64,000 bases of DNA from assembly GCA_963802255.1 (NCBI GenBank), contig CAWDHY010000001.1, forward strand, positions 171,842 through 235,841, written 5' to 3'. The translations under genes and the position numbers were made by a program. The notes under the pieces are model-generated. The model was not told where the DNA came from. It saw nothing but the letters and a program-made list of their open reading frames with translations, and did not search any database. Every line of letters starts with the position of its first letter. The first letter of the stretch is position 1. Source of the DNA: Candidatus Magasanikiibacteriota bacterium. Lineage in GTDB: Bacteria > Patescibacteriota > Patescibacteriia > Magasanikbacterales > GWA2-37-8. Positions 7,042 through 59,909 of this stretch are shown here, piece by piece.

Positions 7042-8880
7042 ATGCGGGATTTTATCAAGAATTTTTTGATTGTATTTTGCGCGCTTTTAGTCATCGCGGC
7101 CGTGCTGAGTTTTTTTAAAGTCGGCGACACACAAAAGCCGGATACAATTGGCGTGGCGAAAATGGTTGAAGAGATTAATGCCGGAGAAGTCAAGAAAGTC
7201 ACGGTTGAGGGCAGTATATTAAAGGTGGAGCTCAATGACGCATCCTTGAAACCGCAAGAAGTCAAGAAGGAACCGGCTGAGTCTTTTGGCGAGATAATGA
7301 AAAATTATGGTGTTTCTGATGAAGCAAGAGCGGCCTTGGAGGTTGAAGTAAAGGATGAAAGTTCATGGAAGTTTTGGGCGGCCAATATTATTCCAGCTCT
7401 TCTGCCTCTAATTATTATTATCGTCTTTTTCTTTTTTATGAGCCGTGGTGTGCAGGGAATGAATAATAAGGCGATGGGATTTGGACAGAGTAATCCGCGT
7501 CAGGTGAACCCTAATGAGCGCGAGAAAAAAACATTTGCCGATGTTGCCGGTACCACAGAAGCTAAGATTGAATTGCAAGAGATTGTTGAGTTCTTGAAAC
7601 AGCCGAAAAAATTTGCCGATATGGGAGCAAAGATTCCGAAGGGTGTACTGCTTATGGGAGCGCCAGGAACCGGCAAAACTTTGCTTGCGAAAGCAGTTGC
7701 CGGAGAAGCTGATGTACCATTTTTTCACATGTCCGGTTCGGAGTTTGTGGAAATGTTTGTCGGTGTCGGTGCATCACGTGTACGTGATTTATTTGGAAAA
7801 GCTAAAAAAGCGGCACCGGCCATTGTATTTATCGATGAAATTGACGCGGTTGGCCGACGGCGCGGTGCCGGTTTAGGCGGTGGGCATGATGAACGCGAGC
7901 AGACATTAAATCAGATTCTCGTGGAAATGGATGGTTTTGACCCGAACATTGGCGTGATTGTTGTCGCCGCGACAAATAGACCGGATGTTTTGGACCCGGC
8001 TTTGCTTCGTCCGGGGCGTTTTGACCGTCGGGTAGTTCTGGATTTGCCGGACATTAGAGATCGCGAAGAAATATTGGCAATCCACGCGATTAACAAACCG
8101 CTGTCCAAGGAAGTATCGCTTAGAAAAATTGCGGAACGGACTCCGGGATTTTCCGGAGCTGATTTGGAGAATCTTTTAAATGAGGCGGCTATATTAACGG
8201 TCCGCCGGGGTTTGAAAAAAATTGGGGAAATTGAAGTGTTGGAAAGCGTTGAAAAAGTATTGCTTGGCCCGGAAAGAAAAAGCCGTATTGTTACTGATAA
8301 AGAAAAGAAGATGACGGCTTATCATGAAGCGGGGCATGCGATTGTCGGATTCCTTATGCCAAATTGCGACCCGGTACGCAAAGTCTCAATAATTTCGCGC
8401 GGACAGGCGGGCGGATATACGCTTAAAATGCCGAGTGAAGATAAACGTTACCGGACGCTGGCTGAATTTAACGATGAATTATCTATGGCTCTCGGCGGAT
8501 TTGTTGTGGAAAAAATGATTTTTGGCGACGATATAATATCAACCGGCCCTTCGGCTGATTTAAAAATCGTAACCCAGATCGCTAAAGATATGGTGATGCG
8601 ATATGGCATGAGTAAACTCGGACCGCGCACTTTTGGCGAGCGGGAGGAACTGATTTTCTTAGGCCGTGAGATTCATGAACAACAAGATTATAGCGACAAG
8701 ACAGCGGAAATGATTGACAACGAGGTGAGTAGTATTATTTCCAAAGCCATGGAACGGGCGAAGGATCTTTTAGAACGGAACAAGGATAAACTGGAGAAGA
8801 TGGTGGCACGGCTACTTGAAAAAGAAACAATTGAGCAGGATGAGATTGCGGAAATTATGGGTGAGGAAACAAAATTATAA
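7042..8880 (+). CDS. ftsH: ATP-dependent zinc metalloprotease FtsH
   Basis: 612 aa. N-terminal TM and second TM, AAA Walker A GAPGTGKT, Walker B IVFIDEID, second region of homology, zinc site HEAGHA. Confidence 0.95.
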
Positions 8881-8894
8881 AACCCAATTAAAAA

Positions 8895-8921
8895 ACACTC
8901 TGCTGTTGCAGAGTGTTTTTT
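8895..8921. terminator. Rho-independent terminator (between ftsH and the convergent operon)
   Basis: acactctgc-tgtt-gcagagtgt followed by tttttt. Confidence 0.6.
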
Positions 8922-8931
8922 AATATAATTT

Positions 8932-10080
8932 TTATTTAACGCTCTTAACAATAATTTTCAGTTTATCACCCACGCTTGGCGTCCGGCTTATCCAGCTTGG
9001 GGTGAACTTAATATCCATCCCGGTCACGTGAGGAAGGCTGACAATATATCTTTCAATTTCTCCTTTTTGTTTATTTAGAAAATATTCTTTATTTAATAGC
9101 GGCGCATTTGCATCAAGAGTTACGATTGCTTCTGTCGCTACCTGTAATTGAGCTGAATTGTTGACTAAATCCGTAGCCGCCACTGTTACTTTTGGATCGT
9201 CTCCAATAGAAAGAATTTTTTCTGATGCGGTATCAATACCGTTTGCAACCTCTTTTTTTAATATTTCATTCAGCGAGTTTTTGTTGTACATGATTAGAGT
9301 AAGAGTGCTCGTGCCGTGAATTTCAAATTCGCTCGCTTCAGCGCCAATGCCCAGCGTACTGGTGGCACCGTTTTGCGATATGGAGACAATAGTTTGGTCA
9401 AATACATCTGAACTGGTAGATAAAGTTTTTAAAAATGCTACCTTGGTCTTTTCAGCGAAATCAGCATCAGCCGATTTGTAATCTGATTCTGATATTACGC
9501 CCACTTTTCCTGACCCGCCGGTCATCGGCTTGATACTTTCGGCATAAACAACTTTTTGTTTTTCCGTGTTTAATCCGGGAATAGTAAACTTGCTCGAGCC
9601 GATATCACTTGCCGCACCTGGTTGGTCGGCATAGACTTGTGCTGTCACCTGCCCTTCGGCCGGTACAGTGACGCGGTCTGAAAGTCTGAACAAAATGCCT
9701 TCGGCGGTTATTACACGCGTTGTTTTGACCAATGGCTGGTCCTCGGTAGTTTTATTATAAAGAATGACCTCTCCTTTTGAAGTGCCGTCGACTTGGCGGG
9801 TTGCGGTTGGAAAATATTTTTCAGACCAGAAAAATTGCGTGGTTGTAACCACTGCGACTAATGATTTGTCGCCCTTTTTTTCAGCCTCCGCGTTGATAAT
9901 GATATTAATTGTCTTGCTGTCCTCTTTTGCCACAATAACGATCTCAGTCTTTTTAAGCATGGTAAAAATAACAATCGCGAGCAAAGCGATTGTCACGACC
10001 AAAAAAGTGAGGGCAATAATGCGATAAACGCGCACCGGCGGTTCCGGCACTGTATGTGTTTGTAAACGATGGGCTATCAT
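8932..10080 (-). CDS. hypothetical membrane-anchored protein (last gene of the pilB operon)
   Basis: 382 aa. Short N-terminal cytoplasmic segment, one TM (IIALTFLVVTIALLAIVIFTML), then a large extracytoplasmic domain. Starts 34 nt downstream of the pilB stop. Confidence 0.6.
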   Translation of the reverse strand: MIAHRLQTHTVPEPPVRVYRIIALTFLVVTIALLAIVIFTMLKKTEIVIVAKEDSKTINIIINAEAEKKGDKSLVAVVTTTQFFWSEKYFPTATRQVDGTSKGEVILYNKTTEDQPLVKTTRVITAEGILFRLSDRVTVPAEGQVTAQVYADQPGAASDIGSSKFTIPGLNTEKQKVVYAESIKPMTGGSGKVGVISESDYKSADADFAEKTKVAFLKTLSTSSDVFDQTIVSISQNGATSTLGIGAEASEFEIHGTSTLTLIMYNKNSLNEILKKEVANGIDTASEKILSIGDDPKVTVAATDLVNNSAQLQVATEAIVTLDANAPLLNKEYFLNKQKGEIERYIVSLPHVTGMDIKFTPSWISRTPSVGDKLKIIVKSVK

Positions 10081-10113: not shown

Positions 10114-11856
10114 TTACTCAGCCACTTTAAATACTTCATCCACACTGGTAATTTGAGACAGCGCTTTTAGCAAGCCGTCTTGTACCATTGTTACCATACC
10201 GTTTTTTACGGCAATTTCCTGGATTACGTATTCGGACACCTGGGCGGATAAAATAACCTGTTCAATCTCTTTATTCATTGTAAATATTTCATAAATACCG
10301 ACCCGGCCTTTATATCCTAAGCCGCTACATTCCGTACAGCCGGGGCCGGCAAAAAAGTGAAGGTCATCCAAATTTACATTTTTCTTTTCCGCTTCGGGCA
10401 AAGCACCGAGAATTGATTTTACGCGTTCTAATTTTTCAGGTTCAAGCTGGATTTCTTTACGGCATGATTCGCAAATGCGGCGGACCAGGCGTTGTCCGAT
10501 AATTGCGTTAAGAGCCGGTGCAAGTAAAAATGGCTTTACACCCATTGAAAGAAAGCGGGGGATCGCGCCGGAAGCAGAATTTGTATGGATGGTAGAAAGC
10601 ATTAAATGTCCGGTTAGAGCCGCTTGAATGGCGATTTCCGCAGTTTCTAAATCGCGGATTTCGCCGACCATACAAATATCCGGATCCTGACGCAGAATGG
10701 AGCGTAAACCCTTGGCAAAAGTGTAATCACGGCTTGGATCAACCTGGCTTTGGTTGATTCCTTCCATTTTAATTTCGACCGGATCTTCTAAAGTGATAAT
10801 TTTTACACCAGGTTCATTTAAGGTGCGTAAAATTGCATAAAGCGTAGTGGTTTTACCGGAGCCGGTTGGACCTGTGGTAATAATCATACCATTTGGCCTT
10901 TCCACTTCTTTGCGTAATCTTTCATAGGCCTCTCCGCGAAGACCGAGGTCGTCATAAGTGACGCCTTTTGAACCGCTATGTAAAATACGCATTACAATTG
11001 ATTCGCCGTAGGTGGTCGGCATGGTGGAAACGCGTACGTCAATTGAGCTGGATGCCAGCCTTAATGTAACGCGGCCGTCTTGCGGCTTATCTGTAATATT
11101 AATTTTTAAACCGGCCAAAAGTTTTATGCGGGAGACAAAACGCTTCCATTGATCTTTTGGTAAAGTTGCTACATCATGTAATTCACCATCAATGCGGTAG
11201 CGCACGGCAATGCCTTTTTCTTCCGCCTCAACATGAATATCGGACGAGTTAGTTTTTAAAGCCGAGGCGATCATTAAAGTTAAAATATCCGTTATGGAAA
11301 TATTTTTGAACATTTCCTGCAGGCCCTGCAAATTAGTGATATTGGACTGAAAGCGGTCAAGTTCTTCATCGGTAATATTTATATCTTTTGTAATCGGTTT
11401 AATAATCGGGAGCGTTTCGTACAATTTCAGGGCAGTATTAAAACTGTTTTCCGATACCAAATATATCTGCACCTTTCCATGATGTTTTTCGCCGATTTGA
11501 TAAGCATATTCATTTAAAGCTTCGTTGTATTCATGCGTGGCGACGCGGATGTCGTCCGGAGTATAATAAAAACAAATTGCTTTGCGTTCACGGGCTTCGG
11601 CTTCAGGAATAGTTTTCAAAGCTTCGGCAGAAATAGGGAAGGCGGTCAGGCTGATATACGGCAAACCTAAATTCATGGCGGCCGCCATCGTCTCTTCCTC
11701 TTTTGCCTTTAGGTCAAGCTCATGCATTTTTTGCGAGAACTTTTCTTGCGTCGTAGGCGTTCCGGATGGTGCTTTCGCCGCGCCACCGGTTTTTTTTATC
11801 AGGTCATTTATTGACGGAAAATCAGACATATTACTTTTTAAATAACCCCCCTGCAT
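10114..11856 (-). CDS. pilB: type IV pilus assembly ATPase PilB (GspE family)
   Basis: 580 aa. Walker A GPTGSGKTTT, Asp box, Walker B DPDICMVGEIRD, His box, tetra-Cys CESC..CTEC, N-terminal GSPII_E_N-like region. An alternative start at 11829 (MSDFPS) would remove the overlap with the upstream gene. Confidence 0.9.
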   Translation of the reverse strand: MQGGYLKSNMSDFPSINDLIKKTGGAAKAPSGTPTTQEKFSQKMHELDLKAKEEETMAAAMNLGLPYISLTAFPISAEALKTIPEAEARERKAICFYYTPDDIRVATHEYNEALNEYAYQIGEKHHGKVQIYLVSENSFNTALKLYETLPIIKPITKDINITDEELDRFQSNITNLQGLQEMFKNISITDILTLMIASALKTNSSDIHVEAEEKGIAVRYRIDGELHDVATLPKDQWKRFVSRIKLLAGLKINITDKPQDGRVTLRLASSSIDVRVSTMPTTYGESIVMRILHSGSKGVTYDDLGLRGEAYERLRKEVERPNGMIITTGPTGSGKTTTLYAILRTLNEPGVKIITLEDPVEIKMEGINQSQVDPSRDYTFAKGLRSILRQDPDICMVGEIRDLETAEIAIQAALTGHLMLSTIHTNSASGAIPRFLSMGVKPFLLAPALNAIIGQRLVRRICESCRKEIQLEPEKLERVKSILGALPEAEKKNVNLDDLHFFAGPGCTECSGLGYKGRVGIYEIFTMNKEIEQVILSAQVSEYVIQEIAVKNGMVTMVQDGLLKALSQITSVDEVFKVAE

Positions 11857-12796
11857 GATGAATTATACGGCTAAAAATGCCTTCATGGTGCATCTTCATA
11901 AATAAATACATCCAGACGCTCATATAATATGTATTGTAGATAGCTCCGAAAATTGTGATAAGTATGAGTAAAAGTACAAAGCCGAAAATGGCGCCGAATA
12001 CAGCCAAGGCCGCGCTGCCAAACGCGCCGGCAATGAGCCAGACAAAAACTGCCGGGATAAAAGAGTAGGAAATAAGAACGGCAAAAAATATTATCAGCAG
12101 AAAATCCAAAACAGTTAGAATGGCACTAATTTCAAAAGAAACAAGTAGGTGTGTGTGCAATAATTTCCAGGATTTTTTGAAGGAGGAAATTAATGATTTA
12201 TCGTCAATTACGGTATATCCGGAGGCAAAAATTGTCACAGCGGAAATTATCCAGCCGAGAAGAATCGTGAAACCCAGCATTACGATATCAATTATCAAGT
12301 ACCAATTATTTTTTGAATAGGGAAGTTTGATCCAGATAATGCCAAAGATGAAAACAGTCAGGAGCAAGGCAATTTTTCTGATCACTTCTATTGTAAAAAT
12401 TCTCCAAAAAAATTTTAAGCCCGTATTCCATATTTTGGAAATTTTTGGCATTGTTTCTTTTTTGTAGAAATCGGCAACAGCAATCAACAAGGCCGCCTTT
12501 GCGGTCACTGAAATATATATGACGGCAAGAGCAATCACACAAAGTACACCTGTCAGCCAGACCAGCCAGATTACTGATGGAACTGTACTGACACCGAGCC
12601 CCGGCCAGTGCCAATTTAAGAGCCAGCTAGCCTGACCTCCGCTGCCCATTGTAATCATCATTTGCGAAATAAAATTGCTCAAACCGAATGACCCGGCAAA
12701 TAGCACCGATAAAAGGCCGAGAAGCCAAAGCCCGGTGTTTTTATAAACCAGACGCCACGCTTCAAGCAATGCTTGTCTGTATGTTGGTTGGTGCAT
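11831..12796 (-). CDS. polytopic integral membrane protein, unknown function
   Basis: 321 aa with about eight hydrophobic helices. Tightly packed in the operon between a cohesin-like gene and pilB. Does not look like PilC/GspF. Confidence 0.6.
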   Translation of the reverse strand: MHQPTYRQALLEAWRLVYKNTGLWLLGLLSVLFAGSFGLSNFISQMMITMGSGGQASWLLNWHWPGLGVSTVPSVIWLVWLTGVLCVIALAVIYISVTAKAALLIAVADFYKKETMPKISKIWNTGLKFFWRIFTIEVIRKIALLLTVFIFGIIWIKLPYSKNNWYLIIDIVMLGFTILLGWIISAVTIFASGYTVIDDKSLISSFKKSWKLLHTHLLVSFEISAILTVLDFLLIIFFAVLISYSFIPAVFVWLIAGAFGSAALAVFGAIFGFVLLLILITIFGAIYNTYYMSVWMYLFMKMHHEGIFSRIIHHAGGLFKK

Positions 12797-12799
12797 ATG

Positions 12800-13648
12800 C
12801 TATTTTTTTCTTTTACTTTTTTTCCAAAAATTAAATTTCTTGCCCTTAAAGTGATGTTTGTTTTCGTGTATAAAGGCTTCTATAAAACCCCAAAGAGATA
12901 TTGCCGCCGAAATGGCAATCATCAGAAGCAATAGCAGAAGCGATAAAGCCGACTGGTCAAAAATAATGTTATTTATTTTTAGAAATATTTTTGGCATTTT
13001 ATCCATTGAGCATGCCGTAGATGTGATGATATTAACCGTTGTTGTGACAACAGTAATTGGGGGAGTGGTTGTTGGCATCGTTGTAGCCGGCTCGGCCGGT
13101 ACAATCACCGGTTTTGGTTTTTCAACCGGTTCCTCAACAACTTTTTTTTCCAATATTGTATATGTTCCGCTTCCACGCGAAGCCAAGATACTCGTGCCTT
13201 CACCATCATTGGCTAGAACTTGCCCACCGACAATAGAAACTTTTGCCTGGCCAAGACTTTTTGCTTTGAAGTTGACCGTCACCAATCGGCCACCTTTGCC
13301 GGTATAACCGGGATTAAGTACGATGCCGGAAAAGTTTATATTGCCGGCATTATTAGTAAAAGTGGGGTTCTCAACCATTAAACTGAAAATTGAGCTTTTT
13401 GTTGAAACCGATATAACCTCAAGTTTATCCGGCGGAAATGAAACAATTGCTTGTGCGGTGTTCATCGCCTGGTCTGCTGAAGAAACAAAAACTCCGACTT
13501 GGAAAGTTTCTCCAATACGGTATGAACCGGAAGACGGTGAAAGATATAGAGAGGCGGCGTGGGCGCCCGCGCCGAAAAACATTGTAGCAATCAGGAAAAG
13601 CGTGAAAAACCCAAAATTACTTATTTTTTTTATTACGTTTTTTCGCAT
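12800..13648 (-). CDS. cohesin-domain-like surface protein with C-terminal membrane anchor
   Basis: 282 aa. Signal peptide, then an all-beta segment typical of CPR/archaeal cohesin modules (LYLSPSSGSYRIGETFQVGVFVSS..NINFSGIV), a Pro/Thr-rich linker, and a C-terminal TM plus basic tail. Confidence 0.5.
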   Translation of the reverse strand: MRKNVIKKISNFGFFTLFLIATMFFGAGAHAASLYLSPSSGSYRIGETFQVGVFVSSADQAMNTAQAIVSFPPDKLEVISVSTKSSIFSLMVENPTFTNNAGNINFSGIVLNPGYTGKGGRLVTVNFKAKSLGQAKVSIVGGQVLANDGEGTSILASRGSGTYTILEKKVVEEPVEKPKPVIVPAEPATTMPTTTPPITVVTTTVNIITSTACSMDKMPKIFLKINNIIFDQSALSLLLLLLMIAISAAISLWGFIEAFIHENKHHFKGKKFNFWKKSKRKK

Positions 13649-14528
13649 ATATTAGAATACAGGCAAAAGTAATTGCCATGAGCAATACTATTATACCGCA
13701 AAAAAGCGGATTTTCATACCAGAAAATTGAAGATGACGCCTGAATGGCGGAGATGCGGTCATTTCCCTGTTTATCAATCGCTTTGACAAAAATATCACTT
13801 TTTAATTTTTGATCGTTTAGCCGGTATGGGCTTTCTGCTTTTTTCCAAATTCCAAAAGTATAATCTTTTTGGAATAAATGAAATGTCTTTCTTTCCATTA
13901 TCTCATAGTGGTCAATGCCCGATTGTTTATCTTGAGTTTGAAAAATTATTGCATAATCGCCGTTAAATAAATTTTGTGTTTTGATAATTTGCGGAATAAA
14001 ATTATCCGGTTTTGTGGTATCAAATACAGTAACTAATTCAGAACCTTTTTCTTTATCTAAAGGATTTACTTGAATCGAAATATTTTTTAAAACCGTGGCA
14101 TCTTCTGTCCCATTTCCATCATTCAGCAAGGCCTGTACCGTAGCGAAATTGATATTAGCCTCACCCTCTGTTTTTGCCCTAAAAATAACGGAAAAAATCA
14201 AAAGTTGGTTGTTGAAACCATTGGGTACAATACCGGAAAAATTGATTGTGCCCGGCTGGGAGATTTGCGGCGGTTCAACCCATAAATTGATGCCTGAATT
14301 TCCTGTTAGTATTTTATCTACATCCAATAAATTTTCCGAAAAAATTATTTTTCCCGATAACGCATTGATGGGAAATTCCTTTGCGTCAATAATCGCGTCT
14401 ATTTTAAATTCGTCTCCGGTATTTACATTTGCAGGAGCTCCGAAAAATAAAAAATCAGCGGCAAAAATACCTGCGGCTGAAAATATAAATATTGCGATGC
14501 TAAAAATTAAAAAAATTATTTTTTTCAC
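13617..14528 (-). CDS. cohesin-domain-like surface protein with C-terminal membrane anchor (paralogous architecture)
   Basis: 303 aa. Signal peptide, similar cohesin-like segment (GDEFKIDAIIDAKEFPINALSGKIIFSENLLDV..TINFSGIVPNG), and a C-terminal TM plus KKRNKKNK tail. Confidence 0.5.
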   Translation of the reverse strand: MKKIIFLIFSIAIFIFSAAGIFAADFLFFGAPANVNTGDEFKIDAIIDAKEFPINALSGKIIFSENLLDVDKILTGNSGINLWVEPPQISQPGTINFSGIVPNGFNNQLLIFSVIFRAKTEGEANINFATVQALLNDGNGTEDATVLKNISIQVNPLDKEKGSELVTVFDTTKPDNFIPQIIKTQNLFNGDYAIIFQTQDKQSGIDHYEIMERKTFHLFQKDYTFGIWKKAESPYRLNDQKLKSDIFVKAIDKQGNDRISAIQASSSIFWYENPLFCGIIVLLMAITFACILIYAKKRNKKNK

Positions 14529-14532
14529 AATT

Positions 14533-15633
14533 TTAACCAGTCCAATAATAAGCGAGAATGCTAAAATCGACTAAATTTATCAATTGGTCTCCATTCAGTT
14601 GGCTTTCTTCAATTGAGAAAAACGAGGGGAGAATGTCCCTTTTATACCAATAAGCGGCAATAGAAAAATCCACCAGGTTTACGCGACAATCGCCGTTTAG
14701 GTCGCCTTTTTTTGGACATTTCCCATCAGGTTCTTTAATAATTGTTTTTTCGCCAACCGTAAATGTTATTGGTGAGGTATATTCACTTTGCATTACCCCA
14801 AGAATTGCCCTTGCTTTTATTGAATATTGTCCTAAAAGCATTGTCGCTGTATCTATCGAAAGCTGGTAATTACCATTAGCTGAAGCTGTTACGTGATAGA
14901 TTGATTCGTTACCGTCGTCTCTTATTAAACTGAGAGTAATTTCCGCGCCAGGGGCTGCTTCACCGAATATTGCGATTGGTTCGCCCTGCTTTACTTCACG
15001 CTTGTCAGCGTCAATTGTAGGTGAAAGAAGAATATTACTGACGGTAACTGACTGACCTTGTTGGCTAATAGATGTATTAGTGATAAATGAGGCCGATCGG
15101 CGTCCGGCAGAGTCTACATAATAAACGGTGAAATGATAATTGCCGGTTGATAAGTTACCGACAATAATATTGAAATCGCCGAGTGCGGTAGAAGTGCCAT
15201 TTGAAACTAAAATACCGTCTTTTAATATTTTTATTGACGCGTATGGCGCAGCTTTACCGGTAAATGATACTTGAGACAAAACAACTGTTCCACCGCCTCC
15301 ACCACCACCGCCTCCACCACTACAGGCGGCACAAAGAGCTCCGCCACAGTCAATACCAGTTTCGTCAAAATCTTTTATGCCGTTTGTACAGTGACTGGCG
15401 CACGCCGGGCAAGTTGCACCGCCGCAGTCAATTCCTGTTTCGTCAAAATTTTTGATACTGTCAACGCAATGATCGTAGGGGACGGATGAACTGACTGAAA
15501 CATTTAATTTTTGCCCTGCGTCAGCCGTAAAAACCGCAAGAGGCAACAATAAAAACACAAGCCCCATGAAAATAATTTTTGGGGCTCGCGTCAAAAAGTT
15601 AGGTAAATTTCGTTTCAGAAAATCGCTCCGCAT
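14533..15633 (-). CDS. secreted dockerin-domain protein with duplicated Cys-rich motif and poly-Gly linker
   Basis: 366 aa. Signal peptide. Two copies of DFDETGIDCGGA(T/L)C(P/A)AC. A G10 run. Two C-terminal type-I dockerin F-hand repeats: GDLNGDCRVNLVDFSIAAYWY and QLNGDQLINLVDFSILAYYW. Confidence 0.6.
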   Translation of the reverse strand: MRSDFLKRNLPNFLTRAPKIIFMGLVFLLLPLAVFTADAGQKLNVSVSSSVPYDHCVDSIKNFDETGIDCGGATCPACASHCTNGIKDFDETGIDCGGALCAACSGGGGGGGGGGTVVLSQVSFTGKAAPYASIKILKDGILVSNGTSTALGDFNIIVGNLSTGNYHFTVYYVDSAGRRSASFITNTSISQQGQSVTVSNILLSPTIDADKREVKQGEPIAIFGEAAPGAEITLSLIRDDGNESIYHVTASANGNYQLSIDTATMLLGQYSIKARAILGVMQSEYTSPITFTVGEKTIIKEPDGKCPKKGDLNGDCRVNLVDFSIAAYWYKRDILPSFFSIEESQLNGDQLINLVDFSILAYYWTG

Positions 15634-15641
15634 GTCTATAT

Positions 15642-16598
15642 CTATTTATTTTCAATTTTTACAATTTTAAATTTTTTCCTAAACAGTTTCGCACTGATCC
15701 ATAGCACTAAAATAATACCAAGTACAATTATCCCTTCCTGCCAAGGGAAAATCCAGATGATAATTGATTTTGAACCGATACCAGGACCGCCTTCTTCCAT
15801 TGAGACATCAGCGGTGATTTTAACCGGGCCAAAAAGGTATTTTTTATCCCAGCGGGAAGCGTATGTCCGGTCATAACCCGGGAAAACTACACCTGGCTTA
15901 TTTAGATCAGTCTCTTTTTTACCGGGGTTATAAAACTCGACCGTGTCCTTTCGCCACAGGTTGCTGAAAGTAATATTTCCAGTAGGCGTAAAGTAGGAAT
16001 TACCTTCATTTTTGATTTTGAAGCTAATATCGACCGGGCCACGGCTTAAAAATCGTGGAGCATTAATTGAGGTAATTTCAGCGCCCTTTATTATGTCACC
16101 CGAAACTTCAAATAAAAGAACTGTGCCAACTCGTCCGCTGATACTGACACCACTTTCCACATCGGTTGAAGGTTTTGCCGGCAAAGCTCTAAATAATACC
16201 GCGCCAAAATGTCCGCCCGGCTGCGCATTTTCCGGTACTTCTATTGAATAATTAATTAATTTACTTTCTTTTGGCCGAAGAACAAATTCTTCGTTATTTT
16301 CGAACTTAATCCAAGAAGAAAGACCCCAGCCGGTATCAACTTCGCCTAGAAGTTCTACAACTCCTTCAGACCCTCCCATCAGGTTTTCTTTTTCGGGTCT
16401 GATACGCACCTCTTCACTGTCGCTGGAATTAATTATTGTTACCGCCCCCTCAAACGTTTGTCCCGGGTCTACTTTCCCTTTAACCGACAAAGGATAGGTA
16501 GAAATAGAAAGCTGCGCGGACGCAGCTTCTATATGTACCAAGCTAATTATGCCGGCAAAAAGGAGGGCAATTCCGAGTGTCAGTTTTGCTCTCCACAT
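15642..16598 (-). CDS. hypothetical cell-surface protein (signal peptide plus C-terminal TM anchor)
   Basis: 318 aa. N-terminal signal peptide, beta-rich middle, C-terminal TM (IIVLGIILVLWISAKLF) plus basic tail. Confidence 0.55.
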   Translation of the reverse strand: MWRAKLTLGIALLFAGIISLVHIEAASAQLSISTYPLSVKGKVDPGQTFEGAVTIINSSDSEEVRIRPEKENLMGGSEGVVELLGEVDTGWGLSSWIKFENNEEFVLRPKESKLINYSIEVPENAQPGGHFGAVLFRALPAKPSTDVESGVSISGRVGTVLLFEVSGDIIKGAEITSINAPRFLSRGPVDISFKIKNEGNSYFTPTGNITFSNLWRKDTVEFYNPGKKETDLNKPGVVFPGYDRTYASRWDKKYLFGPVKITADVSMEEGGPGIGSKSIIIWIFPWQEGIIVLGIILVLWISAKLFRKKFKIVKIENK

Positions 16599-16614: not shown

Positions 16615-17259
16615 TTACGGATTGGTAATCGCGGTAAAGGTAACTGTACCAGTATACACACCGGATTGTTGCGTACCAGGAGCATCAGCTCTAAATCCAT
16701 AAGCAACAGTCTGAGCGCCTCCTACATAAGTGGCGATGGTGGCAATTTGTTGATCAGTTGTTGGGAAACCGGCATACAGAGCATTTGGCGCTGTATCATC
16801 AGACCCCCACCAGGAAGAATTATAAAGTGCCACATCAGTACCTGTTTGGTATACCCGAAATGATAAATTAGCGCCTACTTCTGGTGAAGTGGTTGCGTTC
16901 GGCGAGGAATAATTCCATCCTGTGGCGTCTGGAAAAGCAACATCCGGTGTTGAAGTGCCGTTGAGATTCAGTGTCGAACCAGCGTCATCGCGCTTTACCT
17001 GTAAATTCCACCCGCTGTAATCATTGGTGGTAACAGATAAAGAAGTATTACCGGTAATTGGCGTACCTGGAACTAAAGTACCAAGGTCCACTGTGGTAGT
17101 CGCGAGTGTCAACGTGATCGTTGAAGTCACGGTTAAAATAATTGTCTGAGTGTCTGAATCACTAGCCGCATTTGCCGGTTTTAGGTTGACTAAACCCAGT
17201 ATACCGACCGACGCGCAAAACATAGCGATCAGAATTACGAATGAGATGGTCCTCCTCAT
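16615..17259 (-). CDS. secreted Thr/Gly-rich protein (paralog of 17430-18149)
   Basis: 214 aa. Signal peptide. C-terminal ~110 aa clearly homologous to the divergently encoded neighbour (LNGTSTPDVAFPD..LSFRV.Q.GT..Y.S.WWG..DT....YAGFPT..QQI). Confidence 0.55.
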   Translation of the reverse strand: MRRTISFVILIAMFCASVGILGLVNLKPANAASDSDTQTIILTVTSTITLTLATTTVDLGTLVPGTPITGNTSLSVTTNDYSGWNLQVKRDDAGSTLNLNGTSTPDVAFPDATGWNYSSPNATTSPEVGANLSFRVYQTGTDVALYNSSWWGSDDTAPNALYAGFPTTDQQIATIATYVGGAQTVAYGFRADAPGTQQSGVYTGTVTFTAITNP

Positions 17260-17429: not shown

Positions 17430-18149
17430 ATGAAATTTTTCCGAAAAATTATTATTGTCGCCTTTTTTTCACTAATTTTTGGTGCTGTTGTTTTTGCGGC
17501 CACTGAAGACCGCGGGTCATACAACGCCACATATCATGATTCCACATCTACGAATTTTGATTTAAAAGGCGGAGTAGGCGACCCGGCGGTTGGACGTTCA
17601 GCCAGTACAAATTATATTATTGATCACGGCTTGGTAATTGAGTTTGGCACAATGACTATTACAATTGCGACCAGTGTAAATTTTGGGGTTATTATTCCTT
17701 TGATTCCAGCAGAGGTTACATCAACCGTAAGTGTCAACATGGTGGGGGCGTTTAATGGATATAATTTATTAGTGAACAGGGATAATAGTACATCAACTAT
17801 CGATCTGAATGGGACATCAACGCCGGATGTTGCTTTTCCGGATGAAATCGCATGGAATCCCAGCGGCTCAGGAAACGCCACGGCAACGCCGGGGGATAAT
17901 TTGAGTTTCCGAGTTCAACAAGTTGGAACGAACTCAAATTATGATAGCACTTGGTGGGGAGCAAGCGACACTTCAGGAACGGCAAAATATGCCGGGTTTC
18001 CCACGGTGATGCAACAAATAATGAATTGTACAATGTGTAATTTTGGCTCTACTGACACAATTATTGGTTATCGCGCCTCAGCTCCGGTTTCGCAAACAAC
18101 AGGATTATATTACGGACCGATCACTGTCACAGCTTTGGTAAATCCGTAA
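17430..18149 (+). CDS. secreted Thr/Gly-rich protein (paralog of 16615-17259)
   Basis: 239 aa. Signal peptide. Shares the NGTSTPDVAFPD..WWG..YAGFPT..QQI C-terminal domain with the divergent neighbour. Confidence 0.55.
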   Translation: MKFFRKIIIVAFFSLIFGAVVFAATEDRGSYNATYHDSTSTNFDLKGGVGDPAVGRSASTNYIIDHGLVIEFGTMTITIATSVNFGVIIPLIPAEVTSTVSVNMVGAFNGYNLLVNRDNSTSTIDLNGTSTPDVAFPDEIAWNPSGSGNATATPGDNLSFRVQQVGTNSNYDSTWWGASDTSGTAKYAGFPTVMQQIMNCTMCNFGSTDTIIGYRASAPVSQTTGLYYGPITVTALVNP

Positions 18150-18253: not shown

Positions 18254-21200
18254 ATGATTTGGAGGGAAAAAAAACAGGAAAGTAATTTTTGGGTTATGAA
18301 AAAGACGGCAAAAAATATCATGCTCGGTGTGTTTATTTTGCTTGTTTTTTTGTTGGCCGATTTAGCAAGTGCAATTCCAAATGCTATAAATTATCAGGCG
18401 CGTCTGCGCGATAATTTAGGCGCTCCAATTATTGCGTCAACCACTGTTCAATTTTCAATTTACAATAATCTAACCGGCGGTGCGCCAACTGACACTCCGG
18501 GACAAAGCGGTCCATTGCTTTGGACGGAAACATATGATCAGGCGAGTGGCGCTTGCGTTAAGGTATCTCCTGACGCAAATGGCTATTTTACTTTAACTCT
18601 TGGCGAGTGCGTTGCTTTCCCCGGTTATTTGGATTTTTCCAGTGGCACATATTATTTGGGTGTAAAGATTGATACCGATGCCGAAGCTTCGCCTCGGGTA
18701 AAATTAAATTCTCATCCATACGCTTTAAACTCTGACCGTGTAGACGGGTTTCACGCTACTTCCACCGCCACAGCCAATCAGTTGTTGGCGCTGGGAAATG
18801 ATTTAAGTTTTAATATTGGCACCGGTTCATATTCCGGAGCCGGAATTAGTCTCACGTCATCAACAGCCACGTCAAGCATAAGTGGCAATCTTTCGGTCAT
18901 TGGCAATTCCACTTTTGCCACCGCGACAATAGATAATCTAATCTTAACCAATCCGTTAACTTTAACAAATTTAAACTTCACAAATGCTACTGGCACAAAT
19001 TTATCACTTACTAATTTGACCGTTAGCGGTACTTCTACATTGGGCATTATTAATGCCGGTACATGGCAGGGGAGTATTATTGACCCGGCATATGGTGGTA
19101 CTGGTCAAGACACTTCCGGTTGGAGTGGATTTGTAAAATTATCAGCCGGAGTTTGGAGCACCTCAACTATCAGTTTAACTTCAGATGTTTCCGGAATATT
19201 ACCGATTGCCAACGGGGGTACCAATGCTTCATCTTTTTCGCCATATCAATTTTTATGGTTTGATGGTTCGCAGTTAACTGCCAGCGGATTTACCAGCTCA
19301 AGCTTCCTAACTTATGGCACGGACGATTGGGTGGATATCACCGGCGATACAATGACTGGAGCCTTGATAATAAATAACGACTTATCCGTAACAGGTACTT
19401 CTACATTGGCCACTACATCAGCAAGTAATTTGCGTTTAGGCGACGCCTATTTATTTCCAACAGATGCCCCTATTTTAGTTTCATATAAGCAATACACTGA
19501 CCTTACAAATTTTGAATTTTTTCCGGCACATGCCTTTATCGTTGATTTGTTGCCGACAGCTGACTCGTCATCAACCATTAATTCATTGATTTCTTTAACA
19601 ACCAATGAAAATAGTACCACCAGTTTTGATTTGATCGCCGGAACGTTGTCGCAAGTAATACACAATGGTTCAGGGGTAGTTGGCGCGGCTGTCGGTTCTT
19701 TGTCAGTCGCAGAATTAGCCAGCGCAACAGGCAGTATAAATTTTGCCGTAGGAGTTGCCGGGCAAGTGAACAATGGAATTGAGAACTCAACTTATTCCGG
19801 TACAATAAATATGGCGGCCGGTGTTTTGGCCATGATTGAAAATGGTATAGGTGGCGGTACTATTGGCAATGCTGCCGGGTTGATGACAAACATAACTATT
19901 GATGATGGTTTTATCAACAGTGCTTATGGCGCGAGGATAAATAATCCGACAAGTAATAGCGCTTCAGGAACTATTGGGGAGTTGTATGGCTTATATATAG
20001 AAGAACAAAATTTTGCCACTACTTCCAATTATAATATTTATTCGGGTGGTGCCAGTTCCACCAATTATTTTGGCGGGCGCGTTGGTATTGGTACAACGAC
20101 GCCGAGTTACAATTTGCATGTAGTTCATAATGAAAATTACAACGGACCGCTTGTAACTTTTGAAAATATAAATAACGGAGCAAGCTCAACTGAGCTGATG
20201 CAATTTAAAGTTGGCAATTATGGCGGTGGTATTGGTGTTGCTGGTGAAAATTTTAGTGATTGGGGGTTAACCAACATAGCCGGTTACACTGCTTTAGTAT
20301 CAGGGTTCCCCGGCGCCAGCGGCAACGGGCTTGCTTTACTTGCCGGCCAATCAGGTAATATCATTTTTTACTCTGGTGGCTATGGTCCACCGACAATGGA
20401 CACTGAAAGAATGCGTATTGAAAATGACGGACGAGTTGCCATTGGCACTTCATCAACATTTGAAATGCTTACTGTCGCCGGTGGTATTAATATCGGCGCT
20501 ACTACCACTCCGACTTCTACAGCCGGCACAATTGCTTTCAATGGCACTGACTTTATCGGCTACACCGGTTCGAGTTGGGTGTCTTTAACTGCCGGAATTG
20601 GCGGGGTGACGGGTTCGGGTTCAATCGGCCAACTTTCTTTCTGGGACAGTGCTTCATCAATTACTGGAACCACATCATTATTTTGGGATGATGCTAATGG
20701 TTATTTGGGTATTGGAACCAGTACCCCAGCATCAATTTTTTACGCAGTTGAAGACAATGATTCATGGACAATGGCTCAAGTGCACAATTTAAATACCGGC
20801 CCCAGTTCAACTGCATCTTTAATAGTGCGGGTGGGAGAAGATTGGGGAGGCGGGCTATTCCAAGCGTCACCAAATTTTAGCGATTATGGTTTAGCAAATC
20901 TGGCGGGATATACGGTTTTGTTATCGGGTGCTCCGGATATTCAGTCAAATGGTTTGGCATTAGCTGCCACCGGCGATGGTAATATGATTTTTTATGCTGG
21001 CGGTAATGGACCGCCGACAGCAGATGTTGAACGGATGCGCATAGAATCAAATGGTTTTGTGGGCATTGGAACATCTACACCGAATTATTTATTGGATATC
21101 TTTTCAACTTCTTCAACTGTTGATTTATTTCGTGCTTCTAATGGTAGTACCGGTTTATTTACTATAAATAATAATGGACGAGTTGGTATTGGAACGGATG

Positions 21201-24200
21201 TGTTGACCGGCAACAATCGTCTGCAAATAAATGTTGGTTCCAGCACGCCAACCATTTCGGCCGTGTCTTCTGTTTTTGAAATTGATTCTGAAAGCGGTGA
21301 TTTTTCTGATTTTAATTTCCGGCTTTCCACGACTGGAACAGGTTCCTATCCGGCAATGTATTTTTCTCGTTCCCGCGGTACGCTTGCAGTTCCGGAAATT
21401 TCACAAAATAATGATATTCTTGGTGAAAATATTTTCCAAGGATATTTTGGTACCGATTTTCAAAAGGCCGCAACGATAAGAGCAACTGTTGATGGTAACC
21501 CCACCACCTGGGCGGTGCCGGGTAAACTTTCATTCTTTACAGCTCCGGATATCGCAACTGGTACAGCGCCTTTAGAGCGCATGACTATTAGAAATACCGG
21601 TGATATTGGCATCGGTACCACAACACCGCTTGCCAAATTAGATATTTATGGTGATTTGATTTTATCCGGATCGGACCGGTATTTAAATTTTAATAATGCC
21701 ACCGGGTCGGATGGTTATGGTCTTAGAGACAATGGAGGCCGAATACAATTTAAACACGAAAGCGGATCATGGGAAGATTTATACGGTAAAATTAATCACA
21801 TAATAAATGTAGCAAAAAGCGGGGGAGATTTTAGTGATATCGGCGAGGCAATAGCATTTGCCAACTCATCAACATATGATGTGATTGTCAATATTTATCC
21901 CGGCATTTATGAAGTATCCTCAACATTAGAAATTACCAGCTCGTATATCAAAGGTATCAGAGGTATGTCGCTTAGTGGTGTCATACTTACGCCAACGGAT
22001 GCTTTGGTGACCGCGGCAGAACCGGTTTTTGATATTAATTTCACTTCTAGTTCATCAAATTTTTCCATGTCCGAGTTTACCATAGACGGTAGCGGTGCGT
22101 CCGGATTTAAAGATACGACGGGTTGTGACGCCATAAACATTTCAAGCGAAGGTACTGATTGGCTTGAATTAGAAAAATTATATATTTCAGATGTTAACCG
22201 CGGTATTGATTTACAAGTGGCCAATTTGGCGGATATCTATCATGTAGATTTTTACAATATTGGTAATGCCGGCGTATATATAGATAATGGCGGAATATTG
22301 CAGGTGGAAAATTCATATATGGAAGAATCGGACACCTATTATGCTTATATTGACAGTACAACAGGAGCCTCCGAATTTTATATGGTCGGCAGTGAGTTTG
22401 GTTCTTACAATGATTCGGGAACAGGTCTGTATATGGCCGGCGATAATTCATATTCGGAAATTCGTTATTCCAATATGTGGGGCCTGGATAATAATATTGT
22501 GGTAAATGATGCTTCAACTGTTAAAGTGACTGCCAGCTACCTGCAGAAAGCGCTAACTTATAATGTTGTCCAAAATGGCGATTCAACCGTTAATATTTCA
22601 TCAAGCGACGGAGCTTTTTCCAGCACTGATATCAGTATAAACAATGCGGACAATGTATATTTTTATGCTTTAGCAGAAGAAGAAAGCACGGTGCTTTTTG
22701 GCAGACACGACAATATTGATCAGGATATTTTGAAAGTTGATACCGGCCAGGCGCTTTTGCCAAAATTATCGTATCGGAAAGATTATTACGGAAACAGCGG
22801 CTTGTTATTTATCAATGATAACCCGGGCGAAGAAACAATGTTTGGCGTACAGGCGACCAGCAGTTGGGCGAGGTTATCCGCTGTTAGTGGGGATCGTGGT
22901 ACTGGTGCGGCTTTGCTTCTTTATTCTGATACCGAAGATTTTGGCACAACTTCCAGTTTGCGTGGATGGGCCATGTCCAGAAACGGCGCAGATGCAAATT
23001 TAATATTTTCATTTGACAACAGTGATACAGGGGATAGCAAATCAGTTGTTGAAGATAATCGCGTAATGGAGCTGGATGGTTTTAATACACAAATGCTGGT
23101 TAAAGGAGGCGCGATATTTAATACTTCAAGCGGTGCGTTTGATTTTATTGTCCACGGCGATAGTGATGATAATTTATTATTTGTCCAAGGAAGCTCAGAT
23201 AACATTGGTATTGGTACTTCAACGCCCGGATATAAACTTACAGTTGATGGTGATGTGAATATTACCGGTGCATATCGTATTAATGGCGTGTCACTAACCA
23301 CCTTGAATCCGGGGACGCTTACAGGACAGTTTGCTTATTGGGATGGCTCTGCGTGGTCGCCGACAAGTTCAGTGTTTATATCTTCTGATGGTAAAATCGG
23401 TATTGGTACAACTACTCCGTTAAACGCATTAAGCGTATCGGGTGGTATATATGTTGCGAGCGGCACACCTGCGAATACTGATTTTGCTCTTTATAATAAT
23501 AATGGTCAGCTATATTGGAATGGGTTGCCTGTTATGGGTGGAAGTACAAGCACATATATTATTGATTCTGACGGTGATACCAGAGTAATGACAGAGAATT
23601 CACCGGATGAAGATTATATCCGATTTGAAACTGCAGGCGTGCAAAGGATGGTTATTGATAATAACGGCCTAATTGCCATTAATACAACTACACAAGATGG
23701 TAGAGCAATGTATATTTATGGTGATATAAACAGTGATGTAACTTTAGCACTCCATAATAATAATGCCGGTGTTTCTTCAACAGCAGAATTGGCATTATAT
23801 AATGATCTGGGGAAAATTGGCGGATTAGCCGGGTTAAGTTCAGGGTGGAACGACGGTCTTCCCGGAATTTCCGGAAGCTTAGCTTTATATTCAGTGAGTG
23901 ATTTGTTATTATCCACCATGGGTGCGGGTGGTGATATTATTTTTGATGTTGATCCGAGCGATGAATTCAGGAGCTTAACGATTGCCGGTGTTGGCGGAGC
24001 TAACGCCGGATATGTTGGTATTGCAACTTCATCGCCCCTTGCTCCATTGGATGTTTATGGAAACATGATTTTGTCCGGAGATAATCGCTATATTAATTTC
24101 GGCACAACTACCGGAGTGGCTGGATATGGTTTTCGCGATAATAATGGTGTAATGGAGCTCCGGAATATTAATAATAATCTAAATGTTTGGTCGGAAATAG

Positions 24201-29881: not shown

Positions 29882-30394
29882 ATGCCAATAAGAAAAGTAT
29901 CAGCCGTAAGTGACGTTCAGAATGCACAACCATCTCATCGCGAACCCGCTAAAAAGGAAGAAAACAGCGCTGGAACGGCTGCCATGGTAATCGTGATTAT
30001 TATTGCCGTATTAGCAGTAGCCGGTTGTGTGCTGATGTATTTAAAATATTCAATTGCTCAAAAGAAAATTAATGAGATGGCCACCCCGCAAGGTCAGCAA
30101 GAGATGGCAAAAAAGGAAGTGCAGGATATATTGAAAAAAATTGGCGCGCATATTGTAATACCAACCGATGAAGAGCCGACAATAGCTACGGTCACGGATG
30201 CCGATGCCTTAAAGAAAGAACAGCCTTTTTATCGCGATGCGCAAAATGGCGATAAGGTAATTATCTTTATGCAGGCAAAAAAAGCAATTATATATAATGA
30301 AGGGAAAGATATCCTTGTGAATGTCGGGCCGATATTTGTAAACGAAACTGAAACTCCCGCGGCAAACGTGGAAGATATCAGTATTGATGAATGA
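29882..30394 (+). CDS. hypothetical single-pass membrane protein
   Basis: 170 aa. Charged N-terminus, one TM (AMVIVIIIAVLAVAGCVLMYL), acidic C-terminal domain. Confidence 0.5.
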   Translation: MPIRKVSAVSDVQNAQPSHREPAKKEENSAGTAAMVIVIIIAVLAVAGCVLMYLKYSIAQKKINEMATPQGQQEMAKKEVQDILKKIGAHIVIPTDEEPTIATVTDADALKKEQPFYRDAQNGDKVIIFMQAKKAIIYNEGKDILVNVGPIFVNETETPAANVEDISIDE

Positions 30395-39766: not shown

Positions 39767-39799
39767 AAAAAAATTGATGCTATTAATTAATCAATAAAC

Positions 39800-58938: not shown

Positions 58939-59904
58939 TTATCTAAGTAAGAGTAAAAAATTTGATAGCTTTTTAGGCATTACTGATTCGTATTCCACAT
59001 CATCGCCTTTTAGATTACTAAACCCCAGTTTTGCACTGTGCAGAAATAGCCGTCCGCATTTTTCATCCCAGACGCGTTTTCGTTTTTTTTGAAAATAAAG
59101 AGGATCGCCGACAACGGGGTGATTGTAGGCGAGCATATGAACGCGAATTTGGTGCATTCGTCCGGTATGAATTTTAACCTGAAGCAAAGTAAAATTAATA
59201 AACCGTTTTTCCACAAAAAATTCCGTTTTGGCCTCTTTTCCATCCTCAGTCGGCCTTCCCCGGACTGTTTCCGGTATTGCCGCCATTTTATCCGCTGTTT
59301 CCGAACGGCTGATTGGAAAGTTTATCTCGTCCCAGTCTTTTGCTACTTTGCCGTGCACCAGTACAATATATTCCTTGTTAATTGTTCTGTTCTTAAATTG
59401 ATTTTTTAGTAAATCAAACATTTTTTGTGTGCGGGCGATTACCATGAGACCGGATGCTTCCTTGTCTAAACGATGAACAATACCCGGGCGGGCAGGGTCA
59501 TCTCCGACTTTTTTTATTGAGGGGTATTTTTTAACAATCCAGCCGGCGAGTGAATTTTTTTCTTTTGCTTCCGTGGGGTGAGTCAGAATTCCCGCAGGTT
59601 TGTTTACGATAATATAATCTGGGGTCACGGCCACTATTTCCGGTTCGGTAAAATTTTCCTCGCCAGTTTTAATTTTAATTTTTGGCGTTTCTGATATTTT
59701 TTTGACAGCAGTAATTGTAATATGGTGCCCCTCCCTGAGTTTTTCTCCATATTTTTTCGGCGCATTTCCGTCAACTTCTATCTGTTTGTTATCAATCATT
59801 TTTTGTACTTGTGAGCGGGTGATGCCGAGTTTATCGCATAAAAAAACATCAAGCCGCTGACCGGCAGATGTTTCATTGATAATAATTTTTTTTGGATTTG
59901 GCAT
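58939..59904 (-). CDS. RluA-family 23S rRNA pseudouridine synthase (RluD-like, with S4 domain)
   Basis: N-terminal S4 RNA-binding segment (RLDVFLCDKLGITRSQVQKMIDNKQIEVDG) and catalytic motif HRLDKEASGLMVIART. Start placed at MPNPKK (59904), because the 13-codon extension in the ORF track overlaps the tRNA at 59910-59982. Confidence 0.85.
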   Translation of the reverse strand: MPNPKKIIINETSAGQRLDVFLCDKLGITRSQVQKMIDNKQIEVDGNAPKKYGEKLREGHHITITAVKKISETPKIKIKTGEENFTEPEIVAVTPDYIIVNKPAGILTHPTEAKEKNSLAGWIVKKYPSIKKVGDDPARPGIVHRLDKEASGLMVIARTQKMFDLLKNQFKNRTINKEYIVLVHGKVAKDWDEINFPISRSETADKMAAIPETVRGRPTEDGKEAKTEFFVEKRFINFTLLQVKIHTGRMHQIRVHMLAYNHPVVGDPLYFQKKRKRVWDEKCGRLFLHSAKLGFSNLKGDDVEYESVMPKKLSNFLLLLR

Positions 59905-59909
59905 AATTG

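Follow-up and report, generated by a model that had tools for sequence, protein, structure and literature searches.

Three adjacent genes in a 64,000-nucleotide stretch of DNA from a Candidatus Magasanikiibacteriota bacterium (assembly GCA_963802255.1, contig CAWDHY010000001.1, positions 171,842 to 235,841 of the forward strand; hereafter, the window) probably encode a calcium-dependent plug-and-socket tether of the Patescibacteria cell surface. The trio, read from the minus strand, consists of a dockerin-bearing secreted stalk protein of 366 residues, here termed P3 (14533–15633), and two single-pass membrane proteins that each present one cohesin, namely, the Coh2-type P2 (303 residues; 13617–14528) and the Coh1-type P1 (282 residues; 12800–13648). 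We infer the binding, its calcium dependence, its stoichiometry, and its function from what was observed, namely, domain identities, a topology assigned by hydropathy, a gene order that is conserved, and a concentration of conserved residues where the partners would be expected to meet.

Much of bacterial diversity belongs to Patescibacteria, which apparently live attached to other cells and whose surface structures are for the most part poorly understood. The trio represents a testable candidate core of such an attachment surface: it is present in hundreds of species, and both its gene order and a domain fusion connect it with pilus-like and giant surface proteins. Its dockerin is among the most conserved dockerins known and is accompanied by two dedicated membrane proteins as its putative sockets. 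As such, the trio offers a new setting for cohesin–dockerin chemistry, one that is transmembrane-anchored, enzyme-free, and vertically conserved, with a half-degenerate calcium site and a putative disulfide clamp, and these features could in turn yield new orthogonal parts for protein assembly. The individual domain calls already exist in automatic annotation, as “cohesin domain-containing” and “dockerin type I repeat-containing” proteins; what is new here is the system-level picture and not the domains, and full-text literature searches returned no paper describing cohesin–dockerin modules in bacteria of the candidate phyla radiation (CPR).

In the proposed mechanism, P3 would be exported by Sec and relieved of its signal peptide at a predicted cleavage site. 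Its C-terminal dockerin would then plug into the cohesin of P1, of P2, or of both at the outer face of the cytoplasmic membrane, acting through one canonical calcium loop, one degenerate calcium loop, and a disulfide clamp on the first. P1 and P2 would serve as single-pass membrane sockets that expose the cohesin outside the cell and keep a short basic tail in the cytoplasm, the P1 cohesin being offered on a Pro/Thr-rich linker of ~45 residues and the P2 cohesin being held near the membrane on a conserved OmpL47-type immunoglobulin (Ig)-like domain. The tether would hold the two-Ig stalk of P3 at the membrane and display, on a poly-Gly hinge, a lineage-variable head, which in the source genome would be a pair of four-Cys modules. 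More broadly, the trio may constitute the invariant core of a bigger surface-appendage locus that includes Pam/WxL-type pilins, a transmembrane-anchored chaperone-like protein, and a giant protein, and that would most likely serve attachment to a host or a substrate.

The dockerin of P3 and the cohesins of P1 and P2

The three open reading frames (ORFs) lie exactly where the original prediction had placed them, all on the minus strand and tightly spaced, with a gap of 4 nucleotides between P3 and P2 and an overlap of 32 nucleotides between P2 and P1. A Kyte–Doolittle scan, by which the topology was assigned, detects a signal-peptide-like hydrophobic stretch at the N terminus of each protein and, in agreement with the anchors that had been proposed, a single C-terminal transmembrane segment in P1 (residues 235–258; 12875–12946) and in P2 (274–296; 13641–13709). 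Each of these segments is followed by a Lys/Arg-rich tail (Lys-rich in P2), which would therefore place the cohesins on the outside. In P3, the same scan finds no transmembrane segment beyond the N-terminal signal. When family hidden Markov models (HMMs) were run against all six-frame ORFs of the window, they recovered exactly one dockerin and two cohesins.

The dockerin module, delineated by phmmer, a structural model, and family statistics, occupies residues 306–366 of P3 (14536–14718). Under phmmer, a run of 58 residues (308–365) spans positions 1–60 of solved type-I dockerins, with matches to 5nrm_B (E = 4.4e-4), 2y3n_B (E = 2.3e-3), and also 5nrk_B, and the AlphaFold model of the tail forms three helices (320–329, 336–345, and 354–365) with a predicted local distance difference test (pLDDT) score of ~95. 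P3 thus contains the two tandem loop–helix segments of ~22 residues, within ~60–70 residues overall, that characterize a dockerin, and the two segments quoted in the original prediction are present at residues 310–330 and 345–364. The wider family concurs: 45 of 49 members match the Pfam model Dockerin_1 (PF00404) at E ≤ 0.01 (best 1e-6), precomputed PF00404 assignments are present on some P3 orthologues, and several of the more than 2,000 P3 homologues are titled “dockerin type I repeat-containing protein.”

The two calcium loops differ in their conservation. Loop 1 (residues 311–322; 14668–14703) is canonical, with D, N, D, N, and D at positions 1, 3, 5, 9, and 12, and these ligands recur in 179, 180, 180, 178, and 181, respectively, of 181 distinct family tails. 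Loop 2 (residues 345–356; 14566–14601) keeps position 3 (N or S), position 5 (D in 178 tails), position 9 (D, N, or T), and position 12 (D in all 181); its position 1 is Gln in P3, is Lys, Arg, or Gln in 129 of the 181 tails, and is Asp in just 16. The claim of two classical F-hands, with calcium-binding residues at all five positions, consequently stands in full for loop 1 and fails for loop 2, which lacks the position-1 Asp. The helices that follow both loops read LVDFSI(A/M)AY(W/Y)(Y/W) and are near-invariant across these tails, which always terminate in WTG. The tail is in fact the most conserved portion of P3, and its near-invariant residues extend beyond the calcium ligands to the helix positions that touch cohesins in solved complexes.

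A further feature of the module is a pair of Cys residues around loop 1 (C306 and C316 in P3; 14686–14718). Both are present in 165 of the 181 tails, neither in 15, and a single one in 1, while in 25 tails the second Cys is shifted to position 314 and the first is retained. The two residues are thus jointly present or jointly absent in 180 of the 181 tails, and this covariation suggests a disulfide clamp on loop 1, of a kind that is not known from classical dockerins.

Of the two cohesin proteins, P1 is the more readily recognized. It comprises a signal peptide (residues 1–31), a cohesin (32–170; 13139–13555), a Pro/Thr-rich linker (171–215), and the transmembrane segment and Lys/Arg-rich tail. 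The Pfam Cohesin model (PF00963) scores 36.8 bits on residues 44–150, against a gathering cut-off of 24.1, and is likewise found on most P1 homologues, several of which are titled “cohesin domain-containing protein.” P2 consists of a signal peptide (residues 1–23), a cohesin (24–157; 14058–14459), an Ig-like OmpL47-type domain (178–264; 13737–13997), and the transmembrane segment and tail. Its cohesin is identified by paralogy, family profile, and fold, so that the cohesin-like modules anticipated in both proteins are borne out, albeit by different routes. Over their N-terminal 180 residues, P1 and P2 are paralogous (BLASTP E = 4e-15); PF00963 is matched at E ≤ 0.01 by 10 of 60 P2 family members; and the P2 family profile matches the Ruminococcus flavefaciens ScaB cohesin 5aoz (E = 9.6e-4).

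The fold of P2 points in the same direction. An AlphaFold model built from 60 family members (mean pLDDT 92) runs from a signal helix through a nine-strand sandwich (residues 23–155) and a second β domain (180–262) to a transmembrane helix (274–302), and the sandwich is the flattened, nine-stranded jelly-roll that typifies cohesins. A Foldseek search of this model against the PDB returned cohesins for nearly all of its best matches. Single-module cohesins align with template modeling (TM) scores of 0.70–0.80 and root-mean-square deviations (rmsd) of 2.7–3.4 Å, as exemplified by 2vo8 (TM 0.80), 2xdh (0.75), 6kgf_C (0.72; rmsd 2.7 Å), 3ul4_A (0.72), and 4dh2_A (0.71), and the rank-1 match is 2w1n, the cohesin–FN3 double module of Clostridium perfringens GH84C. 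The second domain matches the NCBIfam model barrel_OmpL47 in 17 of the 60 family members; it is itself strongly conserved, with the motif DKxSGIDHYEI...AESPY...VKAxDKxGN.

Conservation within the cohesins is concentrated on particular strands. The positions that are at least 90% conserved in both cohesin families fall on strands 3, 5, 6, and 8 and in the 8–9 loop, and include N55, W83, F97-S98-G99, P102, G104, and L134-N-D-G-x-G-T141 of P2, with aligned counterparts in P1. No position conserved to this degree lies on strands 2, 4, 7, or 9, and the sole entry on strand 1, A23, is the final residue of the signal peptide. By strand order, the conserved strands would correspond to the dockerin-binding 8-3-6-5 sheet of type-I cohesins.

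Conservation of the trio and exchange of the P3 head

Relatives of P3 were sought with two peptide patterns scanned over one genome per GTDB species, which located a P3 relative on at least 518 contigs of species representatives, a lower bound because only two patterns were used. Eighty loci were retrieved, iterative HMM searches were seeded with the window proteins, and the counts given here are over 84 related loci taken from varied Patescibacteria metagenome-assembled genomes. Cohesin-family ORFs are present in 83 of the 84, always on the same strand as the dockerin gene and 3′ of it, and the order in these 83 is dockerin, Coh2-type (~300 residues), and Coh1-type (~270 or 480–590 residues). 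The sole exception (L064) is a sequence that stops at a contig end ~550 bp past the dockerin gene, and seven loci have an additional cohesin protein between the dockerin and Coh2 genes. All named loci are of the Parcubacteria/ABY1 type (Magasanik-, Nomura-, Wolfe-, Staskawicz-, Falkow-, and Veblenbacteria), the nearest relatives of the window being metagenome-assembled genomes of Candidatus Magasanikbacteria.

The membrane anchors are conserved along with the gene order. A C-terminal transmembrane segment is found in 77 of 79 Coh2-type proteins of the related loci, in 10 of 13 short Coh1-type forms, and, followed by a charged cytoplasmic tail, in all 53 long Coh1-type forms. The long forms, of 480–590 residues, predominate in most lineages (L004, L013, L019, and ~50 others) and possess Big_13-like domains and a transmembrane helix; their cytoplasmic tail ends in ...LKKDLxxAExxIxKEIKDIEKE, and P1 is a short form without that tail.

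This near-universal order constitutes strong evidence for P3, P1, and P2 as cognate partners. A long-preserved cognate interaction would also be expected to show just such a near-invariant dockerin alongside two cohesins that conserve one and the same face, and the trio is probably a conserved way to attach a surface structure to the cell. A separate candidate for the same module, SEML1_0315, the essential “dockerin” protein of Southlakia (Cell 2023), was considered and rejected; it is a stand-alone protein of 927 residues that has no cohesin neighbours.

Upstream of its dockerin, P3 is assembled from a signal peptide, a head, a hinge, and a stalk. The signal peptide (residues 1–39; 15517–15633) has a positive n-region, a hydrophobic stretch at residues 13–40, and an A-x-A motif, with a predicted cleavage after TADA. 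The hinge is a poly-Gly linker (residues 106–115; 15289–15318), read from the sequence and near-invariant across the family (G109–G114). The stalk (residues 118–297; 14743–15282) is composed of two Ig-like β-sandwich domains that match Pfam Big_6, Big_13, and CarboxypepD_reg, with Big_6 above threshold. AlphaFold models both sandwiches at a pLDDT of ~96, and Foldseek relates the stalk to tandem Ig/FN3 arrays of surface-layer (S-layer) proteins and to the extender regions of adhesins. Pfam scans of P3 and its family found no enzyme domain on the dockerin protein, which accords with the non-cellulolytic character that the original prediction had assigned to the assembly.

The head of P3 carries two four-Cys modules of 24 residues each (residues 55–78 and 81–104; 15322–15471) with the pattern HCxxxxx(N/D)FDETGIDCGGxxCxxC, the first copy having NFDETG instead of DFDETG. 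The AlphaFold model leaves these modules unresolved (pLDDT < 50), an outcome of the shallow alignment available for a head that is specific to this clade. The duplication of the Cys motif on the docked protein had been correctly anticipated; the motif is not peculiar to that protein, being a widespread and interchangeable module. When 1.84 billion cluster representatives were scanned in full with HMMER, the module was found in 2,547, in up to ~35 copies per protein and in proteins of up to 6,770 residues. Its carriers include cargo sorted by the type IX secretion system in Bacteroidota as well as proteins of Polyangia, and it co-occurs with FN3, PKD, GEVED, fasciclin, and fibrinogen-like domains. 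No Pfam model covers the module, generalized as HCxxGxx(N/D)FDETGxDCGGxxCxxC. It resembles an extracellular repeat family that has yet to be curated and is best described as a promiscuous extracellular mini-module, putatively disulfide-knotted.

Within the P3 family, such heads are swapped. Most members bear a CGNGxxExGExCD-type repeat, for which two family members match Pfam DUF4215, and others bear FN3 or other segments; despite these swaps, the poly-Gly hinge, both Ig domains, and the dockerin stay constant.

The surrounding locus and alternative explanations

To call the assembly minimal, as the original prediction did, understates its setting, in that the trio stands within an eight-gene array that includes distant Pam/WxL-type pilin and chaperone genes and lies beside a gene for a giant protein. 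The eight minus-strand genes (17259 to 8932) overlap one another or are separated by gaps of at most 33 nucleotides, and encode, in order, a pilin-like protein of 214 residues, a chaperone-like protein of 318 residues, P3, P2, P1, a polytopic membrane protein of 321 residues (11831–12796), a PilB/GspE-type ATPase (10114–11856; Pfam T2SSE, E = 3e-122), and an N-terminally anchored protein of 382 residues (8932–10080). A terminator scan found no intergenic terminator inside the array ahead of a bidirectional, intrinsic-terminator-like hairpin with a 17-bp stem (8887–8924), situated between the 382-residue gene and the convergent ftsH (7042–8880, plus strand), and the eight genes are probably one transcription unit. 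A promoter scan was uninformative, with 29 sites seen and 25 expected. The G+C content of the window is ~41%.

These neighbours raise the tentative possibility, which would refine the tether reading, that the joint anchors a Pam-type pilus, or else the giant fibre, in the membrane, with P3 as a basal adaptor or terminator in place of the PamR of the Mycosynbacter pam operon. The N-terminal part of P3 would engage the pilin or giant assembly, and the filament would be secured through the binding of the dockerin to P1 and P2. Besides the tight packing of the trio with pilin-like and chaperone-like genes in one terminator-free array, the identities of the neighbours argue for such an anchor. The chaperone-like protein (15642–16598, minus strand), which has a signal peptide and a C-terminal transmembrane segment, matches WxLIP_PGBD (E = 1.2e-3), as do 13 of its 26 relatives (best 2.3e-5), and in 40 of the 84 loci a gene of this kind immediately precedes that of the dockerin protein. 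The pilin-like protein (16615–17259, minus strand), encoded by the first gene of the array, matches the NCBIfam model CPR_Pam_pilin_C (NF058581; E = 0.009), as do 12 of 28 family members (best 1e-5). A divergently transcribed gene encodes a PamT-like protein of 239 residues (17430–18149, plus strand) that matches CPR_pilus_PamT (NF058579; E = 7.8e-7), as do 9 of 28 family members (best 1.3e-13). Phmmer comparison of the pilin-like and chaperone-like proteins with solved structures returned nothing significant.

The PamT-like protein is further connected to the trio through its N-terminal ~50 residues (S-x-N-Y...DPxVGR...S-x-N-Y; 17430–17650), which recur at the N terminus of other dockerin proteins: they are fused to those of L010 (1091–2281; E = 7e-12) and L011 (6764–7891; E = 7e-16) and occur in diverged form in dockerin proteins of ~445 residues. 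This fusion is, by these matches, a domain-fusion link between pilus-like proteins and the dockerin protein. Next to the PamT-like gene, on the plus strand, are the genes for a giant surface protein of 3,845 residues (18254–29791) and, 3′ of it, a small membrane protein of 170 residues (29882–30394). In a second locus architecture, the order is giant, a protein of ~135 residues, the ~445-residue dockerin protein, Coh2, and Coh1. The ~135-residue family is homologous to the 170-residue ORF of the window (E = 3.5e-27), and the giant-plus-small pair therefore stays beside the trio through rearrangements. In other lineages, upstream proteins of 700–1,683 residues end in a pilin-like domain. Finally, the Pam model includes a terminator that is itself transmembrane-anchored, namely, PamR (bioRxiv 10.64898/2026.03.03.709456).

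Against a pilus or fibre anchor stands the fact that every Pam and WxL match falls under its curated cut-off. The pilin-like protein reaches 16.1 of the 55 bits required and the PamT-like protein 28.7 of 240, and the neighbours are thus distant relatives of Pam proteins at best. Recognizable pilin or chaperone genes lie beside the trio in just about half of the loci, the P3 of the window has Cys modules where the PamT-like segment would be, and the giant protein of the window does not match the pilin HMM. P2 was also considered as a PamR and rejected, with no Pam model matching any of the 60 P2 family members and no RbmA-like structure among the top 50 fold matches. The wider proposal, that in Parcubacteria/ABY1-type Patescibacteria a cohesin–dockerin joint anchors a host-attachment appendage, be it a Pam-type pilus, a giant fibre, or both, and replaces the PamR of Saccharimonadia, is a shade more doubtful still. 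If true, it would be the first use of a cohesin–dockerin pair for fastening a pilus or fibre to a cell, and the trio would count among the conserved core components of the surface apparatus used in episymbiosis.

The plug-and-socket tether itself has to be weighed against several results that count against it. Dockerin_1 scores 16.8 bits on P3 (E = 0.0078), under the gathering score of 22.9, and P2 has no Pfam match of its own, Cohesin included; in the Pfam scan by which the original prediction was to be checked, one of three domains, the P1 cohesin, passes its threshold. The absence of the position-1 Asp from loop 2 in ~90% of the family makes calcium binding by that loop uncertain. It is by strand order rather than by coordinates that the conserved strands of the cohesins are placed in the 8-3-6-5 sheet. 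Furthermore, classical type-I dockerins bind no more than one cohesin at any moment, and the tether model leaves the constant presence of two different cohesin proteins per single dockerin unaccounted for.

It is improbable that the P3 tail is instead a partnerless, dockerin-like EF-hand pair, such as a calcium-dependent folding or stabilizing element, and that the P1 and P2 sandwiches bind cell-wall glycan or the S-layer, with no contact between tail and sandwich. The sub-threshold Dockerin_1 score, the degenerate loop 2, and the matches of 7 of 49 family members to EF-hand_7 as well would be in keeping with such a tail, and outside cellulosomes orphan modules resembling dockerins or cohesins occur frequently. 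However, the fixed-order adjacency in 83 of 84 loci, the greater conservation of the tail than of the rest of P3, at cohesin-contacting helix positions as well as at calcium ligands, and the conservation of the same strand positions in both cohesin families all favour the tether over a tail without a partner. An accessory role in type IV pilus machinery, as co-transcription with the PilB-type ATPase and two membrane proteins after P1 might imply, is very unlikely and is rejected because PilB and its two neighbours are syntenic with the trio in only 5 of the 84 loci, all of them close (Magasanikbacteria-like) relatives, the cohesin genes being followed in all other lineages by unrelated genes, for example, those for Mur ligases or transketolase.

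Other features of the window may be recorded here. The giant protein has no Pfam match; it is rich in IGIGT(S/T)TP-type repeats and has a C-terminal tandem repeat of 7–8 copies of PPAEETPVEEPVVE. Further large envelope-type proteins are encoded on the minus strand at 37862–42334, namely, an 844-residue DUF4012 protein (39800–42334) and a 634-residue DUF11 protein (37862–39766). A tRNA-Ile gene with the anticodon TAT (59909–59982, minus strand) overlaps the ORF 58939–59943 at its called start; most bacteria read AUA by a lysidine-modified CAU tRNA.

Relation to known pilus and cohesin–dockerin systems

Among CPR surface structures, the Pam pilus, a filament put together by donor-strand exchange, is built from the pilins PamA/B/E, PamT, the transmembrane-anchored chaperones PamC/D, and the transmembrane-anchored terminator PamR, and is placed mainly in Saccharimonadia and Microgenomatia; the available part of that account describes no cohesin or dockerin (bioRxiv 10.64898/2026.03.03.709456). 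Pam is CPR-specific like the trio locus, whose neighbours show weak, family-wide matches to Pam pilins and PamT. The 318-residue chaperone-like neighbour ends in a transmembrane helix, as the anchored PamC and PamD do, both kinds of locus have a conserved giant “tail-fibre-like” protein nearby, and PamR and P2 are alike in having two β-sandwich domains followed by a C-terminal transmembrane segment. The differences are that the first domain of P2 is a cohesin, whereas PamR has an RbmA-like FnIII domain, and that the named trio loci are Parcubacteria/ABY1-type.

A second parallel is with the WxL loci of Firmicutes, in which WxL proteins accompany a DUF916/DUF3324 membrane protein. The 318-residue neighbour and half of its family match WxLIP_PGBD (DUF916), at sub-threshold scores, and end in a transmembrane segment. 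The ...Y.GT.T.TA..NP tail of the small secreted partner proteins resembles WxL C termini, and cohesin or dockerin modules are not known from WxL loci.

The anchoring scaffoldins of the OlpA/OlpC type from Clostridium thermocellum (3ul4, 4dh2) likewise capture a secreted dockerin protein by means of one type-I-like cohesin, borne on a protein that is bound to the cell, a capture that in the trio is predicted, and the trio dockerin shares with that system its two near-identical 22-residue repeats. The anchors differ: anchoring scaffoldins of cellulosomes use SLH domains or sortase, whereas that of the trio is a C-terminal transmembrane helix. So do the ligand, P3 being devoid of enzyme and carbohydrate-binding module, and the dockerin, which lacks the position-1 Asp in loop 2 and has a covarying Cys pair at loop 1; moreover, there is no multi-cohesin scaffoldin in the trio, and its host is a non-cellulolytic, ultra-small bacterium. 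Apart from the dockerin, the domains of P3 are limited to the Ig-like pair and the Cys modules, neither P1 nor P2 has more than a single cohesin, and the window proteins that were scanned yielded no domain of a carbohydrate-active enzyme. Since the defining features of a cellulosome were looked for and are absent, the trio is not one.

The glycoside-hydrolase complexes of C. perfringens (2w1n, 2vo8, 2jh2) and Archaeoglobus fulgidus 2xdh share with the trio the use of cohesin–dockerin modules outside cellulose degradation, and the cohesin–FN3 tandem of 2w1n is mirrored by the cohesin and Ig/FN3-like domain of P2. In C. perfringens and A. fulgidus, these modules reside on secreted enzymes or soluble proteins, whereas the cohesins of the trio reside on dedicated single-pass membrane proteins and belong to a fixed three-gene operon found across hundreds of species. 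It is with these non-cellulosomal cohesin–dockerin pairs that the trio belongs.

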